In this document: piece after piece, positions 3,865-13,226 of the stretch
How the letters are laid out: each line of letters begins with the position of its first letter
How positions within the stretch are numbered: position 1 is the first letter of the stretch
Assembly: GCF_053078305.1 (NCBI RefSeq)
Contig: NZ_CP166879.1
DNA: 64,000 nucleotides
Reading direction: 5' to 3' (one strand)
Notes under the pieces: model-generated
The model's input: the letters and a program-made list of their open reading frames with translations, nothing else
What the model was told of the DNA's origin: nothing
Database searches by the model: none
Translations under genes and position numbers: made by a program

Positions 3865-5477
<1,613 letters not shown>

Positions 5478-5519
5478 TTATTCAGTCGATAGTAACCCGC
5501 CCTTCGGGGATAGCAAGCA

Positions 5520-5570
5520 TTTTTTGCAAAAAGGGGTAGATGCAATCGGTTACGCTCTGTATAATGCCGC
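5520..5570 (+). promoter_or_regulatory. guaBA promoter region with candidate PurR-box-like element
   Basis: TATAAT at 5560..5565 about 44 bp upstream of the guaB ATG; weak -35; atgcaatcggttacgc (5540..5555) matches the 16-bp pur-box palindrome at about 11/16. Confidence 0.45.
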
Positions 5571-5608
5571 GGCAATATTTATTAACCACTCTGGTCGAGA
5601 TATTGCCC

Positions 5609-7075
5609 ATGCTACGTATCGCTAAAGAAGCTCTGACGTTTGACGACGTTCTCCTCGTTCCTGCTCATTCTACTGTTCTGCCGAATACTGCTGACCTCAG
5701 CACCCAGCTGACGAAAACTATTCGTCTGAATATCCCTATGCTTTCCGCAGCAATGGATACCGTAACGGAAGCGCGCCTGGCTATTGCTCTGGCTCAGGAA
5801 GGCGGTATCGGCTTTATCCACAAAAACATGTCCATTGAACGCCAGGCAGAAGAAGTTCGCCGTGTGAAAAAACACGAATCTGGCGTGGTGACTGATCCGC
5901 AGACTGTTCTGCCAACCACGACGCTGCGCGAAGTGAAAGAACTGACCGAGCGTAACGGTTTTGCGGGCTATCCGGTCGTTACCGAAGAAAACGAACTGGT
6001 GGGTATTATCACCGGTCGTGACGTGCGTTTTGTTACCGACCTGAACCAGCCGGTTAGCGTTTACATGACGCCGAAAGAGCGTCTGGTCACCGTGCGTGAA
6101 GGTGAAGCCCGTGAAGTGGTGCTGGCAAAAATGCACGAAAAACGCGTTGAAAAAGCGCTGGTGGTTGATGACGAATTCCACCTGATCGGCATGATCACCG
6201 TGAAAGATTTCCAGAAAGCGGAACGTAAACCGAACGCCTGTAAAGACGAGCAAGGCCGTCTGCGTGTTGGTGCTGCAGTTGGCGCAGGTGCGGGTAACGA
6301 AGAGCGTGTTGACGCGCTGGTTGCCGCTGGCGTTGACGTTCTGCTGATCGACTCCTCCCACGGTCACTCAGAAGGCGTTTTGCAGCGTATCCGTGAAACC
6401 CGTGCTAAATATCCGGATCTGCAAATCATCGGCGGCAACGTGGCAACAGCTGCAGGTGCACGCGCTCTGGCAGAAGCTGGTTGCAGCGCGGTTAAAGTCG
6501 GTATCGGCCCTGGTTCTATCTGTACGACTCGTATCGTTACTGGCGTAGGTGTTCCGCAGATCACTGCCGTTGCTGACGCAGTTGAAGCCCTGGAAGGCAC
6601 CGGTATTCCGGTTATCGCAGATGGTGGTATTCGCTTCTCCGGCGACATCGCCAAAGCTATCGCCGCTGGCGCAAGCGCGGTGATGGTAGGTTCCATGCTG
6701 GCGGGTACTGAAGAATCTCCGGGTGAAATCGAACTCTACCAGGGCCGTTCTTACAAATCTTACCGTGGTATGGGTTCCCTGGGCGCGATGTCCAAAGGTT
6801 CCTCTGACCGTTATTTCCAGAGCGATAACGCTGCCGACAAACTGGTGCCGGAAGGTATCGAAGGTCGCGTAGCTTATAAAGGTCGCCTGAAAGAGATCAT
6901 TCACCAGCAGATGGGCGGCCTGCGCTCCTGTATGGGTTTGACCGGCTGTGGTACTATCGACGAACTGCGTACTAAAGCGGAGTTTGTACGTATCAGCGGT
7001 GCGGGCATTCAGGAAAGCCACGTTCACGACGTGACCATTACTAAAGAGTCCCCGAACTACCGTCTGGGCTCCTGA
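5609..7075 (+). CDS. guaB: IMP dehydrogenase
   Basis: 488 aa from ATG 5609 ([21 protein letters not shown]...), CBS and catalytic GSICTT motif; track ORF is N-extended to 5540. Confidence 0.96.
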
Positions 7076-7082
7076 TTCTCTT

Positions 7083-7103
7083 CGCCCGACTTCATGTCGG
7101 GCG
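7083..7103 (+). other. GC hairpin in guaB-guaA spacer
   Basis: cgcccgac ttcat gtcgggcg inverted repeat followed by atttatatt; possible intra-operon attenuator or RNA processing site. Confidence 0.3.
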
Positions 7104-7143
7104 ATTTATATTATCTGTTTCACTTGCCTCGGAATAAGCGTCA

Positions 7144-8721
7144 ATGACGGAAAACATTCATAAGCATCGCATCCTCATTCTGGACTTCGGTTCTCAGTAC
7201 ACTCAACTGGTTGCGCGCCGCGTGCGTGAGCTGGGTGTTTACTGCGAACTGTGGGCGTGGGATGTGACAGAAGCACAAATTCGTGACTTCAATCCAAGCG
7301 GCATTATTCTTTCCGGCGGCCCGGAAAGTACTACTGAAGAAAACAGTCCGCGTGCGCCGCAGTATGTCTTTGAAGCAGGCGTACCGGTATTCGGCGTTTG
7401 CTATGGCATGCAGACCATGGCAATGCAGTTGGGCGGTCACGTTGAAGCCTCTAACGAACGTGAATTTGGCTACGCGCAGGTTGAAGTCGTAAACGACAGC
7501 GCACTGGTTCGCGGTATCGAAGATGCGCTGACCGCAGACGGTAAACCGCTGCTCGATGTCTGGATGAGCCACGGCGATAAAGTTACCGCTATCCCGTCCG
7601 ACTTCGTCACCGTAGCCAGCACCGAAAGCTGCCCGTTTGCCATTATGGCTAACGAAGAAAAACGCTTCTATGGCGTACAGTTCCACCCGGAAGTGACTCA
7701 CACCCGCCAGGGTATGCGCATGCTGGAGCGTTTTGTGCGTGATATCTGCCAGTGTGAAGCCCTGTGGACGCCAGCGAAAATTATCGACGATGCTGTAGCT
7801 CGCATCCGCGAGCAGGTAGGCGACGATAAAGTCATCCTCGGCCTCTCTGGTGGTGTGGATTCCTCCGTAACCGCAATGCTGCTGCACCGCGCTATCGGTA
7901 AAAACCTGACTTGCGTATTCGTCGACAACGGCCTGCTGCGTCTCAACGAAGCAGAGCAGGTTCTGGATATGTTTGGCGATCACTTTGGTCTTAACATTGT
8001 TCACGTACCGGCAGAAGATCGCTTCCTGTCAGCGCTGGCTGGCGAAAACGATCCGGAAGCAAAACGTAAAATCATCGGTCGCGTTTTCGTTGAAGTATTC
8101 GATGAAGAAGCGCTGAAACTGGAAGACGTGAAGTGGCTGGCACAGGGCACCATCTACCCTGACGTTATCGAATCTGCGGCGTCTGCAACCGGTAAAGCAC
8201 ACGTCATCAAATCTCACCACAACGTGGGCGGCCTGCCGAAAGAGATGAAGATGGGCCTGGTTGAACCGCTGAAAGAGCTGTTCAAAGACGAAGTGCGTAA
8301 GATTGGTCTGGAGCTGGGTCTACCGTACGACATGCTGTACCGTCACCCGTTCCCGGGACCAGGCCTTGGCGTTCGTGTTCTGGGTGAAGTGAAGAAAGAG
8401 TACTGTGACCTGCTGCGCCGTGCTGACGCCATCTTCATTGAAGAACTGCGTAAAGCGGATCTGTACGACAAAGTCAGCCAGGCGTTCACCGTCTTCCTGC
8501 CAGTACGTTCCGTTGGCGTAATGGGCGATGGTCGTAAGTATGACTGGGTTGTCTCTCTGCGTGCTGTCGAAACCATCGACTTTATGACCGCACACTGGGC
8601 GCATCTGCCGTACGATTTCCTCGGTCGCGTTTCCAACCGCATTATCAATGAAGTGAACGGTATTTCCCGCGTGGTGTATGACATCAGCGGCAAGCCGCCA
8701 GCTACCATTGAGTGGGAGTGA
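7144..8721 (+). CDS. guaA: GMP synthase (glutamine-hydrolysing)
   Basis: 525 aa, class-I GATase N-terminus, [10 protein letters not shown]-loop. Confidence 0.96.
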
Positions 8722-8761
8722 GGCTATTATTTAAACTATTGTTTTATTTGATTTAGTGAGT

Positions 8762-8800
8762 GCCATTGATGATATTGACTGCATTATCAATGGCATTTTT
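8762..8800 (+). terminator. AT-rich hairpin plus T-run downstream of guaA
   Basis: gccattgat (8762..8770) pairs with atcaatggc (8786..8794), followed by attttt. Confidence 0.4.
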
Positions 8801-9105
8801 CATGGTATAAGGCCGACGCTGAATCGAAGATATAGCAAATACCATGTGACTGTATCAGCAAATGCCATGGTATCGACAACCGGGGGCATTGCAGCGCTGT
8901 GCTGATGCCATCGATGCCCGCTTTTAGTCAGAACACTCTCTCGACCCAAGCCTCCAGATCCTTAAATATGCGCCAGAGGAGCACCTCGTGATCGAAATTA
9001 TGAACAAGACAGCCGCCGCTCGGAATCGAAGTCTCCATATGGGTGAATAAGGTTTGCGGAAAACACGCTGAGAAAATAGAAAAGCGTCAATGAAGGGACA
9101 TAGCA

Positions 9106-10386
9106 ATGGCGATTAACGGAGTGGACGGTGTTAGCGCAGTCACCGTGGATGAACTACTCAAGCAAGGCCTTCGGATACCGAACTATCAACGCCCATACAG
9201 TTGGGAAGTATCGACCGCTCTACAACTGGTGGATGATCTCAGCGAAGCTCTTCGAGATACCGAAAGAAAAGATATTCCCTATGTTTTGGGTGCAATCATT
9301 CTTCACGATGATGGTGAGTATCTCAATGTAGTCGACGGACAGCAACGTCTGCTGACTTTGCGAATGATTCTTGCGGCCTTAGATCCGATAAATCACCAAA
9401 TTTCGGTGTCTGGTAACAGAGAAACCTCTGTCTCCCTGGTTTGGATAGAGCTTCAAAGGCGCCTGTCGCAGTTGGAAGATAAAAAAGAATTTTTGGATTT
9501 TATCTGTCACAAATGTCAGTTGGTGCGTATTGTGACGGACGATATTGATGAGGCATTCCGTGTCTTTGATTCCCAGAACTATCGCGGCAAACCGCTTGCC
9601 CCTCATGACTTGCTCAAAGCACACCACCTGCGCGAAATGCACGATGAGTCCGCTGCTATGAAAGTGGCTGTCGTTGAGGCTTGGGAAGCCGTAAATGATG
9701 AGGATCTGGACAGGCTTTTTTCTACTTTTTTATACCGGATATCCAAGTGGTCACGAGGAGAAAGCTCGCTCGAATTTGCTATTCGGGACATCGGTATGTT
9801 CAAGGGAATTTCATCACGATCCCACAGATCATTTTCGCCAAATCTGCGATATCACCTTGCAGCACAAGCCGCTATGCCACTTCTAAGTGCATGGGCGGTG
9901 TCCTCGACACATGATGCTCGAAATGCCGGGCGCAGCCGCTTTCAGCTTGATGCCCCGATAATCGCTGGGCGCTCATTTTTCGAGATGGTGGCATTCATGC
10001 TTGACGAATTGAAGATACTGGAAAAAGAGGTTATCGACAAAGGTTTCAAAAACTTTGGCCCATCTCAAAGTCGCTACCGCTACGTGTACGAATTGTTCAT
10101 TGCCGCTCTGCTTTGCTATACAAACAAGTTTGGCGATGAAGATGTGGATGAAGTGCGAAATAGGTTATTCGCATGGGCATATGCCTTGCGGGTCGAGTTA
10201 CTTCGTGTGCAATTTGTATCTGCTGACAACCGAGCTCGAGGTAAAAACGATGCAAATAAATCGCCTTTTGTTTTGCTACGCAACGCGATGACTGGAAGTG
10301 TTGTCCGCAAACTTCCAATAGCAAGTCAGCCATACAACGATAACCACGAAAAGGAACTCATTGCTTTTATCAAGGGGCTGCAATGA
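9106..10386 (+). CDS. DUF262 (ParB/Srx-like NTPase, GmrS-like) protein; accessory gene A
   Basis: 426 aa; IPNYQRPYSW motif and DGQQR (nt 9334..9348); later FRVFDSQNYRGKPL motif; no HNH/His-Me motif seen in the C-terminal ~270 aa; ATG 9106 with GGGA RBS; stop overlaps the next start (ATGA at 10383..10386). Confidence 0.8.
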   Translation: MAINGVDGVSAVTVDELLKQGLRIPNYQRPYSWEVSTALQLVDDLSEALRDTERKDIPYVLGAIILHDDGEYLNVVDGQQRLLTLRMILAALDPINHQISVSGNRETSVSLVWIELQRRLSQLEDKKEFLDFICHKCQLVRIVTDDIDEAFRVFDSQNYRGKPLAPHDLLKAHHLREMHDESAAMKVAVVEAWEAVNDEDLDRLFSTFLYRISKWSRGESSLEFAIRDIGMFKGISSRSHRSFSPNLRYHLAAQAAMPLLSAWAVSSTHDARNAGRSRFQLDAPIIAGRSFFEMVAFMLDELKILEKEVIDKGFKNFGPSQSRYRYVYELFIAALLCYTNKFGDEDVDEVRNRLFAWAYALRVELLRVQFVSADNRARGKNDANKSPFVLLRNAMTGSVVRKLPIASQPYNDNHEKELIAFIKGLQ

Positions 10387-12335
10387 GCAAGAAGGAGTTG
10401 AAACCCGAACTGCTAACAGTAGGCAAGCTATTCACGGACAATTATCTGATTCCTATTTATCAACGGAACTATGCTTGGCGGGCCGAACAGATTGAGCAAC
10501 TTATCAGCGATATTCAAGACTCGGTTGTTGGGGGCCAGGACGACTATTTTCTTGGAAACCTTGTTGTAATCAAGCGGGGTAGAGAGGACGAGTTCGAGGT
10601 CATAGATGGACAACAACGACTTACAACCCTCTATCTGCTTCTGACCTTCCTGGAGCAAGACGGTGAGGGTGGGAAGCCGTCGATTGGCCATGCAGGCCAC
10701 TTGCAATATGAGTCGCGTGCACGGGCAACGGAAGCCCTGCGGCGAGTAGCACAGGAGGCGGCTAAGGGGCACGTCCGACCGCAGGGCTCCACGAGTAATG
10801 CAGATGCTGGCATCCATGAAGGCTACAGCATCATCAATCAGTTCTTCAAACAAAATGAAACCCTTAATTGCTCACGCGAAAAATTCTCCGATTTCTTGCT
10901 AACGAAGGTTACTGTCGTCCGTGCCTCGCTGCCACCCAATACAGATCTCAATCGCTACTTCGAGATCATGAACACTCGTGGGCAGCAACTCAAGCAGGTT
11001 GATATTGTTAAGGCTCGCCTGATGAGCAAGCTGCCCAATCAATATGAACGCGAATGCTTCGCCTGGGTTTGGGATGCCTGTGCTGAGATGGATTCTTATG
11101 TCCAGATGTCTCTGACCCGTGGTGACACCAGTTTGCGAAACAAAGTATTTGGCGATGAATGGTCCTGGCTGGAGGTGACCAGCTTCGCGTCGTTAATGGA
11201 AAGTCGTCCGCAATCCGGCATCAATTCTTCAAGGCAATCCTCCGAAGGGGTATCGTTGTCCTTGGATGAGGCGTTGTCAAAATACGCTAAAGAGATCGAG
11301 TCAAATTCCACTGAAGACGAGGGCAACGAGCGGTTTCGTTCGACTATTGAGTTTCCGGCCTTTCTGCTACACGTTCTAAGAATTATGAAAGGCGATGAGG
11401 TCGAAGACGAAGGCCAGCTTGACGACAAACGCCTCATCAAGTCATTTGACGACGCTGTAAATAATGTACCCGATGCTAAAGCCGATTGGGTGCGTAACTT
11501 TACATTCATGCTCCTCAAGTGCCGCAACCTCTTCGATGGCTTCATTTTGAAGCGTCAATTCACGGCGAACATCGGTGACGATGGCGATTGGTCTCTCCAG
11601 CGATTGAAGAAAGGCGGCGCGGACAAGAAGCCAACCCCGACGTATATCCATGTTTTCTCGGCCAGCAATGGAAACTTAGAGGAGGACGGCGGTGCTGACC
11701 CACATACCCGAGATGTATTGCTGCTTCAGTCCATGCTTCGGATAACCTACACTTCTCCGCGAACGATGCACTGGATTACCAAAGTTCTTCGCTGGCTATC
11801 CGTCAAAGCCCCTCAAGACGCGAAACATGCGGATCTTGCCGATTTGTTGAAGGGGTATGCCCGCAGCAAGGTCAAAGAGACATTCCCCTTTGAGGAAGAT
11901 CAGCAACCACAAGGGTTTGGTATCAGCCGCATCGTCTTTTCGTATCTCGACTATCTTCTGTTGAGCGATTCCTCAAAACGAGATTTCAAATTTCAGTTCA
12001 GAACTTCCATTGAGCACTTTTATCCACAGCATCCGGACAAAGAACAGTCGGGCGCGGTTGTTTCAGGTTCTAGCCTTAACCTGCTTGGCAACCTTGCGCT
12101 CGTAAGCGTCAGCGCGAACTCAAAATTCAGCAATAGCCTTCCCAGAGCGAAGGCCGAAAACTTCAAGGATACGATTGAACTTCAAAGTCCCAAGCTCAAG
12201 AGAATGGCGGAAATCACTCGAAATACAAGCTGGGACGATCAGCAGATAACAGCTCATCATGAAGAGATGGTGACATTGCTTCGTGATGATGTAAGTCTGG
12301 TGGAGGCAAGCGGAAGATCCTACCCGGGGCGTTGA
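10383..12335 (+). CDS. DUF262-DUF1524 protein (GmrSD/SspE/BrxU-family type IV restriction endonuclease-like); accessory gene B
   Basis: 650 aa; N-terminal IPIYQRNYAW plus DGQQR (10605..10619) plus FEIMNTRGQQL; C-terminal His-Me finger motifs SIEHFYPQHP (12009..12038) and NLLGNLALVSVSANSKFSN (about 12072..12128). Confidence 0.85.
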   Translation: MSKKELKPELLTVGKLFTDNYLIPIYQRNYAWRAEQIEQLISDIQDSVVGGQDDYFLGNLVVIKRGREDEFEVIDGQQRLTTLYLLLTFLEQDGEGGKPSIGHAGHLQYESRARATEALRRVAQEAAKGHVRPQGSTSNADAGIHEGYSIINQFFKQNETLNCSREKFSDFLLTKVTVVRASLPPNTDLNRYFEIMNTRGQQLKQVDIVKARLMSKLPNQYERECFAWVWDACAEMDSYVQMSLTRGDTSLRNKVFGDEWSWLEVTSFASLMESRPQSGINSSRQSSEGVSLSLDEALSKYAKEIESNSTEDEGNERFRSTIEFPAFLLHVLRIMKGDEVEDEGQLDDKRLIKSFDDAVNNVPDAKADWVRNFTFMLLKCRNLFDGFILKRQFTANIGDDGDWSLQRLKKGGADKKPTPTYIHVFSASNGNLEEDGGADPHTRDVLLLQSMLRITYTSPRTMHWITKVLRWLSVKAPQDAKHADLADLLKGYARSKVKETFPFEEDQQPQGFGISRIVFSYLDYLLLSDSSKRDFKFQFRTSIEHFYPQHPDKEQSGAVVSGSSLNLLGNLALVSVSANSKFSNSLPRAKAENFKDTIELQSPKLKRMAEITRNTSWDDQQITAHHEEMVTLLRDDVSLVEASGRSYPGR

Positions 12336-12553
12336 CTTCTTTGAATAACCGCTTTTGGACGAATGTCCCTTGTGGAGTGCAAGTTGTCAGTTTAAAAGTG
12401 TTTTGCGTCGGGCGACACGATCAGTACAGCTCCCAGGTTTTTTTACCATGGTATTTTGTGTGGTATCGACATGCAAAGATAATGCTATTTTGTTGATTTT
12501 ATAGTGTTTTAAGGCGGCATTGATCATCGAGTGGGAATAAACCCTGTACATAT

Positions 12554-12594
12554 TGCTGAAGTTTTCTTTTCGGATAAAACTTCAGCAGATTTTC
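12554..12594 (+). terminator. perfect 12-bp-stem hairpin downstream of the accessory operon
   Basis: tgctgaagtttt (12554..12565) is the exact reverse complement of aaaacttcagca (12576..12587), 10-nt loop, then GATTTTC; a T8 run follows at 12622..12629. Confidence 0.45.
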
Positions 12595-12686
12595 ACAGCA
12601 AACCCCTCTTATCTCTGGAGGTTTTTTTTACGCAAATTAAAAACCCATAACTCTCACGAATCATGGGCTTTGTGGTAGAAAGACGA

Positions 12687-13226
12687 TTAATTAAACCAAC
12701 CGTCCGATTTATTCTCTTCTGCTTTACCCACGCTTTTCATCAAATCGCGACCGCCTTCTGTCACATTTCTGTTAGCGTCAGCTTCAGATTGCACGACATC
12801 AGTTTGCGCGGCTTTGTGCTTCAGCTCCTGGTCGATAAACTCGTTCTCTCGCTTAACGCGGGCTTCTTCTTTCGCCAGCGCCAGCTTTTGTTTCTGAATC
12901 TCTAAGCTGCGCAGCTCATCTTCATAACTTTGATCGCGTTTTTTATCCGCGGTGGCTTCGGCGTCCAGTTTATCCTGACGAGCTTTCTTATCCGCTGCTG
13001 CTGCCGCCGCTCTTTTGTTAGCGGCGGCCTGGGCATTTGCGCGACGTTGCTTCTCTTGCTGGATTTCCCTGTTGCGCTCCGCGACCCATTCGTCATGCTG
13101 CCTTTGCTCTTCATTTTTACCTTGCTGTTCCGCTTCTGCGACAGCAGAGAGTTGATCCTGCAATGATGAGGCGATAGCCGGATAGCTTAAGGAGACCAAG
13201 ATGGCGCAAAGAAAAACTTTCTTCAT
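12687..13226 (-). CDS. yfgI: YfgI, secreted coiled-coil protein
   Basis: 179 aa, signal peptide, K/E/Q-rich; recognised as YfgI. Confidence 0.9.
   Translation of the reverse strand: MKKVFLCAILVSLSYPAIASSLQDQLSAVAEAEQQGKNEEQRQHDEWVAERNREIQQEKQRRANAQAAANKRAAAAAADKKARQDKLDAEATADKKRDQSYEDELRSLEIQKQKLALAKEEARVKRENEFIDQELKHKAAQTDVVQSEADANRNVTEGGRDLMKSVGKAEENKSDGWFN

Follow-up and report, generated by a model that had tools for sequence, protein, structure and literature searches.

Probable TgvAB-family restriction pair beside guaA in Escherichia coli, in which a nuclease-less DUF262 paralogue accompanies a GmrSD enzyme

Introduction

The closest described relatives of the gene pair reported here are two-gene systems in which a nuclease-less DUF262 protein is encoded next to a DUF262 protein carrying a DUF1524 nuclease. 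In TgvAB of Vibrio cholerae VPI-2 (VC1767/VC1766; PMC11411939, bioRxiv 10.1101/2024.04.05.588314), neither gene protects alone, even when overexpressed, and defence requires the DGQQR motif of TgvA and that of TgvB, together with the catalytic His and Asn of TgvB. T-even phages with glucosyl-hmC DNA are restricted by this system and escape upon loss of hmC glucosylation (PMC11411939).

The GmrS1/GmrSD2 doublet of E. coli ECOR17 shows the same dependence, in that neither of its genes protects alone, even when overexpressed (PMC12373910). This doublet restricts T-even phages and did not restrict hypo-modified T4; it is inactivated by the E582A/H583A substitutions in the EH nuclease motif of GmrSD2, is toxic when GmrS1 and GmrSD2 are induced together, and is inhibited by T4 Ip3, with T4 injecting three Ip inhibitors that are each specific for one GmrSD type (PMC12373910). 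In that paper, a representative of each of 15 GmrSD groups was synthesised and tested on T-even phages, giving five further active systems.

A further system, GrwAB of WASA-lineage V. cholerae, is described (PMC12137116, as summarised in PMC12409362) as consisting of one DUF262+DUF1524 protein and one nuclease-less DUF262 protein, both of which are required; its naming is reversed, GrwA being the nuclease-bearing protein, and in the same summary its target appears to be 7-deazaguanine-modified DNA. Single-chain members of the family (Eco94 and EcoCT GmrSD, BrxU, SspE, DndI and HEC-06) are also known, and whereas single-chain GmrSD enzymes act as one polypeptide, with BrxU and SspE forming homodimers, TgvAB-type homologues need a nuclease-less paralogue. 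Here, we compare with these systems a gene pair located beside guaA on an E. coli chromosome.

Results

A two-gene segment between guaA and yfgI

The window analysed here is the whole 64,000-nucleotide stretch taken from contig NZ_CP166879.1 (NCBI RefSeq assembly GCF_053078305.1). It is a piece of Escherichia coli chromosome with the gene order xseA, guaB, guaA (7144-8721), A, B, yfgI, yfgH, yfgG and pdeF. The guaA-yfgI spacer, which measures 92 bp in K-12, extends over 3962 bp in the window (8722-12683) and carries the co-oriented genes A and B, as follows:

9106..10386, plus strand: gene A, TgvA/GmrS1-type, 426 aa, with GmrSD_N and DUF7834 and no nuclease (open reading frame, Pfam, homology)
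10383..12335, plus strand: gene B, TgvB/GmrSD2-type enzyme, 650 aa (Pfam, homology)
10383..10386, plus strand: ATGA, in which the stop codon of A overlaps the start codon of B (translational coupling; from the sequence)
12687-13226, minus strand: yfgI

Among 5426 complete E. coli genomes searched, 81 carry the A-B segment, and RefSeq names both of its products there 'DUF262 domain-containing protein'. Protein A differs from RefSeq WP_001625659 at 6 of its 426 residues and protein B from WP_001625657 at 1 of 650. In the literature searched, these accessions occur in a supplement only and in no main text, and they are catalogued as CLS_017 and CLS_016, respectively, in the clustering of PMC12373910. 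We read CLS_016/017 as one of the three 'two-gene systems' of that paper, the doublets being CLS_003/004, CLS_016/017 and CLS_018/019, and the representatives tested there should include the CLS_016/017 doublet. A sigma-70 promoter scan 5' of A returned no plus-strand candidate, an Rfam search of the whole window returned no match, and no NCBIfam model matched A or B.

Gene A combines a DUF262 NTPase domain with a helical second domain

Exactly two domains were detected in A by Pfam:

9160..9630, plus strand: DUF262/GmrSD_N NTPase domain of A, residues 19-175, with QR28, DGQQR77 and FDSQN154 (Pfam E 1.3e-27, motifs)
9661..10347, plus strand: DUF7834 domain of A, residues 186-414, all-helical, with no catalytic signature (Pfam E 5.6e-55)

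The QR motif at residue 28, DGQQR at residue 77 and FDSQN (FxxxN) at residue 154 bear out the DUF262 NTPase assignment made in an earlier sequence-only reading of this DNA, which had also singled out the peptide FRVFDSQNYRGKPL; the peptide is indeed there, although at nucleotides 9556-9597, 3 nt away from the position of about 9559-9600 given at the time. The same reading had described A as 'DUF262-only', a description that has to be abandoned because Pfam places the second conserved domain, DUF7834 (PF25202), at residues 186-414. All 68 diverse members of the A family carry GmrSD_N and DUF7834 only, with a nuclease domain in none of them (Pfam), and within the NTPase domain of these sequences Q28, R29, D77, G78, Q80, R81, F154, D155, Q157, N158, R160 and G161 are invariant, with Q79 nearly so. 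A search of 1.84 billion cluster representatives yielded 413 clusters at E < 1e-30 to A, mostly proteins of 430-480 aa that aligned to A along most of its length.

Other resources recognised the N-terminal part of the protein. PADLOC, in a 2023 library version without a TgvAB model, gave partial N-terminal matches only, to the HEC-06, Orf5 and SspE models; these involved residues ~11-106 and 121-211 of A, against models of ~530-790 positions, and a full-length match failed. Likewise, a PDB sequence search gave matches to the DUF262 N-terminus only (DndI 9jfl, SspE) and no TgvAB-family structure, and a search of literature main texts gave no mention of DUF7834 or PF25202.

Structure prediction of the C-terminal region, which the sequence-only reading had proposed as a check, was performed with AlphaFold2 on whole A (pLDDT 93.6, pTM 0.78) and on the C-terminal half alone (pLDDT 90.5, pTM 0.90). 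In both models, residues 183-426 form helices throughout, with no beta-hairpin or sheet. A His-Me finger requires a beta-hairpin and a helix, and a PD-(D/E)xK nuclease requires a mixed sheet; since the predicted C-terminal half has neither hairpin nor sheet, both folds appear to be absent from A. When the C-terminal domain alone was compared with known structures, it matched DndI, BrxU, SspE and a C-terminal fragment of SspE over 148-165 residues, and in these model-based comparisons the nearest folds to the C-terminal ~240 residues are the helical regions of DndI, BrxU and SspE.

Residue conservation was examined in two alignments. Both show strict invariance of G234, G288, F291 and F292 within the C-terminal half, while W193, L209, W215, K233, W357 and R362 are strictly invariant in one alignment and almost so in the second. 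Neither alignment contains a conserved Asp or His in this half; E194 is nearly invariant, only in the C-terminal alignment, in which no acidic residue is strictly invariant. A motif scan of the whole of A found no H..P, no [DE]H..P and no N..L....N.

These observations bear on the idea that A harbours a cryptic nuclease, either as a divergent HNH or PD-(D/E)xK C-terminus or within the ParB-like fold of DUF262. The label 'ParB-like nucleases' has in the past been given to some ParB/Srx-fold proteins, and DUF7834 is without an assigned function, both of which could be taken in favour of this idea; nevertheless, within the limits of prediction, A contains no cryptic nuclease, and we regard the idea as highly improbable. 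Set against the single-chain GmrSD enzymes (BrxU, SspE and Eco94GmrSD), A lacks their C-terminal DUF1524 nuclease, and in its predicted structure it looks like a GmrSD paralogue from which the nuclease is missing. A is an ancient paralogue with an intact DUF262 NTPase site, and its DUF7834 domain resembles the helical regions of GmrSD-family enzymes.

Gene B has the architecture of a complete GmrSD enzyme

Protein B consists of GmrSD_N (residues 14-214), a helical middle region and GmrSD_C (residues 521-631; Pfam), the last of which contains the nuclease core:

12012..12026, plus strand: His-Me finger core EHFYP of B (residues 544-548), with G569-N570-L571 and N579 downstream (motif scan)

Residues E544, H545, P548, G569, N570, L571 and N579 are invariant across 35 B-family sequences, and both GmrSD_N and GmrSD_C were found in every one of 35 B-type partner proteins (Pfam). 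The QR, DGQQR and FxxxN NTPase motifs are intact in B, as they are in A, and the same motifs mark the DUF262 NTPase of the single-chain systems (Eco94/EcoCT GmrSD, BrxU, SspE, DndI and HEC-06). Judged by its sequence, B is a complete GmrSD enzyme made up of a DUF262 NTPase, a helical middle and a DUF1524 His-Me nuclease. It thus has the full architecture of a single-chain GmrSD, whereas in A it is the helical domain that resembles the helical regions of these enzymes.

The motif scan, Pfam and the 68 relatives of A agree with the earlier statement that a nuclease motif is missing from A and that a His-Me motif is present in B (EHFYP, 544-548). The accompanying analogy with a split GmrS/GmrD proved to be a poor one: later work (Machnicka 2015, as summarised in a preprint) showed that EcoCT GmrSD is one fused polypeptide, and B already has both domains. 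The right comparators are TgvAB and GmrS1/GmrSD2.

A and B correspond to the two proteins of TgvAB and GmrS1/GmrSD2

TgvAB is like A-B in its gene order and ORF overlap, in its domains (GmrSD_N and DUF7834 in TgvA, GmrSD_N and DUF1524 in TgvB) and in having DGQQR in both proteins. For sequence comparison, we used the first ~400 residues of TgvA (VC1767) and TgvB (VC1766) as given in Table S5 of PMC11411939 (TgvA 399 aa). A aligned colinearly with TgvA at 25% identity over 377 aa (blastp, E 1e-27), and hhalign gave a probability of 99.94 over 334 columns spanning both domains; TgvA was found to have the same two domains as A, with DUF7834 at E 7e-38 (Pfam). B aligned with the N-terminal 400 residues of TgvB at 29% identity over 420 aa (blastp, E 8e-37), the C-terminus of TgvB lying outside this alignment. 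In the cross pairs (A with TgvB, B with TgvA), matches were limited to ~70 N-terminal residues.

There are also differences from TgvAB, in that identity is only 25-29% and that TgvAB sits in a type I RM operon, a setting from which it takes its name but which does not define such systems, whereas A-B stands alone between guaA and yfgI. Stand-alone TgvAB pairs are, according to the TgvAB authors, 17 times commoner, and near-identical A-B orthologues, from the Shimwellia blattae chromosome and from Klebsiella plasmids, are included in their MacSyFinder hit table (PMC11411939).

The ECOR17 doublet is, like A-B, an E. coli two-gene system, and its GmrS1 has the same domains as A. The GmrS1 sequence, which we rebuilt from the supplementary alignment of PMC12373910, is 31% identical to A (E 8e-57) and carries GmrSD_N and DUF7834 (E 1.4e-76). 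The ECOR17 doublet belongs to a different cluster from A-B, with its nuclease motif at E582/H583 instead of E544/H545 as in B; of these two pairs, only ECOR17 has been shown to be inhibited by Ip3 and to restrict T-even phages.

When compared with TgvAB and GmrS1/GmrSD2 feature by feature, the locus in the window has adjacent, co-oriented genes in which DUF262 without a nuclease is followed by DUF262 with DUF1524, homology of A over both of its domains, homology of B together with the His-Me H...N...N arrangement, and the NTPase motifs. We consider it likely, with a probability of roughly 0.8, that the pair encodes a modification-dependent (type IV) restriction enzyme made up of two proteins and belonging to the TgvAB family (GmrS1/GmrSD2-type), in which A is the nuclease-less paralogue and B the complete GmrSD.

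A and B are maintained as a pair

A genome scan provided 80 related loci from Proteobacteria, Bacteroidota, Firmicutes, Spirochaetes, Actinobacteria, Verrucomicrobia and one archaeon (Methanobrevibacter). In 71 of these, an intact A is followed directly downstream, on the same strand, by an intact B in which all three regions of B are present, and the A/B junctions overlap mostly by 8, 4, 11 or 1 nt; the exceptions are contig ends or frameshifted copies. Stand-alone A-B pairs were seen in unrelated neighbourhoods in Bordetella avium, Pseudoduganella and one metagenome contig. Pairwise identities of A and of B across loci are correlated (Pearson 0.89, Spearman 0.40). Estimates of dN/dS were 0.15-0.17 for A and 0.10-0.12 for B, and 0.13-0.18 for the two A domains taken separately (against the Klebsiella and Shewanella copies); A and B are both under purifying selection.

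Six loci carry a frameshifted or truncated A-B pair, with the damage mostly in B and in one case in A. The occurrence of such copies in several genomes indicates occasional decay of the system.

Since both proteins belong to the GmrSD family, whose members often act as single chains, A and B might in principle be independent defence genes that share a hotspot. This seems very improbable, however, in view of the A-then-B order with overlapping codons in 71 of 80 loci from many phyla, the correlated identities, the travel of A and B together as one cassette (see below) and the genetic interdependence of the homologous pairs. The sequence-only reading had suggested that A is the partner of its nuclease-bearing paralogue and might serve it as a sensor, regulator or specificity subunit; the ATGA coupling, the conserved linkage and the two homologous systems in which neither gene is protective alone all uphold A as a dedicated partner of B.

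The tight operon with overlapping ORFs also recalls a toxin-antitoxin layout, and GmrSD enzymes can be toxic (PMC12373910), as would fit a role for A as a negative, antitoxin-like regulator that restrains a toxic nuclease B until infection. In the homologues, however, the B-type protein could be overexpressed alone, was non-protective and was not reported to be toxic, with toxicity appearing only on joint induction, and the DGQQR of TgvA is required for defence, which argues for a positive role of A. Because B alone is, in the homologues, inactive and not reported to be toxic, an antitoxin-like role of A is unlikely.

Another possibility, raised by Vizzarro et al., is that A acts as a decoy or guard against phage anti-restriction proteins (IPI*-like inhibitors), in which case B would be the true stand-alone enzyme. 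The three T4 Ip inhibitors, each directed at one GmrSD type, fit this idea, yet the ECOR17 doublet is itself inhibited by Ip3, and the invariant NTPase site of A and the near-universal A-then-B linkage are what would be expected of a core subunit rather than a decoy, making the decoy role decidedly unlikely. The invariant NTPase site, the translational coupling and the experiments on homologues instead support, as the best reading by analogy, that A would be an NTPase subunit, indispensable and catalytically active, in a heteromeric enzyme that has its sole nuclease in B.

The pair lies in an integrase-less cassette with GIsul2-type ends

A and B are contained in a 3.8 kb cassette (~8707-12536) with direct GAGTGGGA repeats at both ends:

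8710..8717, plus strand: left GAGTGGGA repeat, in the last codons of guaA (attL-like core)
12529..12536, plus strand: right GAGTGGGA repeat (attR-like core)
12605..12629, plus strand: terminator-like hairpin (12605-12621) followed by a T-run, in the guaA-yfgI spacer 3' of the cassette (consensus scan only)

Homology to the Klebsiella plasmid copy begins at window position 8707, and the left junction gives guaA a new stop codon (GAGTGGGAGTGA). The K-12 guaA gene ends in GAGTGGGAATGA, and the right copy in the window, ATCGAGTGGGAATAA, looks like the displaced original end of guaA. For the GIsul2 integrase, the published core att site is GAGTGGGA at the 3' end of guaA, and this enzyme is also able to mobilise att-flanked sub-elements that have no integrase of their own (PMC9376610).

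Compared with GIsul2-type elements, the cassette has the GAGTGGGA att ends at the guaA 3' end and is without a tyrosine integrase of its own. Between the repeats of near-identical loci, RefSeq annotates A and B only, and no integrase; the other window ORFs of at least 60 aa in this interval are short ones overlapping A or B, together with a 60-aa ORF immediately 5' of A. The annotation of strain TUM13936 likewise lists no integrase within 20 kb.

A cassette with identical limits and ~96% nucleotide identity is present on 468 plasmids, 464 from Klebsiella and 394 predicted to be conjugative. In locus L088 (Klebsiella pneumoniae IncFIB/IncFII plasmid NZ_CP023947.1), it occupies positions 5604-9430 and is flanked by an IS3 transposase and umuDC, with GAGTGGGA at its left end and GAGTGGGT at its right. 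A further copy, ~95-96% identical, lies at the guaA 3' end in Shewanella indica KJW27 scaffold40 (locus L007, positions 4046-9440), and finding the cassette at this site in a distantly related genus as well favours site-specific insertion over homologous recombination. The possibility that the Shewanella copy represents a contaminating Escherichia contig was considered and rejected, since guaA there is an estimated ~77%, and the adjacent guaB ~73%, identical to the E. coli genes.

The flanks of the cassette show features of their own. To its right, the guaA-yfgI spacer (12537-12683), which we also compared with that of E. coli TUM13936, diverges from the K-12 spacer allele and has a hairpin of its own. 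In other cassette-bearing strains, the match ends at about window position 12538 and the right-hand spacer differs, a pattern suggestive of multiple insertions or of subsequent recombination. Near the left end and within the cassette, window positions 8761-8800 contain a perfect 10-bp inverted repeat, TGCCATTGAT ... ATCAATGGCA, with a 15-nt loop and then TTTTT; the K-12 terminator of the 92-bp spacer is absent here, and this inverted repeat is a possible replacement terminator for guaA.

Discussion

The family, the two-gene requirement and the A-B protein cluster are all in the literature already. The same applies to the question of why a full GmrSD enzyme should depend on an NTPase paralogue that has no nuclease, which is explicit in the literature and which the window makes no more testable than the published systems do. 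Added here are the identification of Pfam DUF7834 as the C-terminal domain of TgvA and GmrS1, predicted to be all-helical and with no catalytic signature, and the A-then-B arrangement in 71 of 80 loci across bacterial phyla and one archaeon. There is also a gain for annotation, in that the 'DUF262 domain-containing' pairs beside guaA (81 of 5426 E. coli genomes) and on the 468 plasmids can be assigned to the TgvAB family of type IV restriction systems. The GIsul2-type ends of the cassette are a small new lead on the spread of such defence pairs.

As to mechanism, A and B would form a hetero-oligomer, an asymmetric counterpart of the intertwined BrxU and SspE homodimers, in which NTP binding or hydrolysis by both DUF262 domains may gate the single nuclease of B. 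Through its DUF7834 domain, A may help to recognise modified DNA or to license B, and the target of the window allele is presumably sugar-modified hydroxymethylcytosine DNA. Identity of A to the experimentally tested homologues is no more than 25-31%, so the pair could target another modification, as the case of GrwAB illustrates. There, according to the summary in PMC12409362, the nuclease-less GrwB has a longer C-terminus that is different from that of A; the different partner and apparently different target of GrwAB would be compatible with the partner influencing specificity, and prove nothing in this respect.

Two linked readings can be taken jointly, and in combination we hold them as tentative. 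First, the TgvAB family would consist of asymmetric, heteromeric, BrxU/SspE-like enzymes with one nuclease per complex, in which DUF7834 reads the modification or sets specificity. Second, the A-B unit would be an integrase-less cassette mobilised in trans by GIsul2-type integrases via its GAGTGGGA ends, like the CR2-sul2 unit. If true, an asymmetric heteromer would account for the inactivity of a 'complete' GmrSD protein on its own, and mobilisation in trans by GIsul2-type integrases would explain how the same cassette comes to be found on hundreds of Klebsiella plasmids as well as next to guaA in both E. coli and Shewanella.
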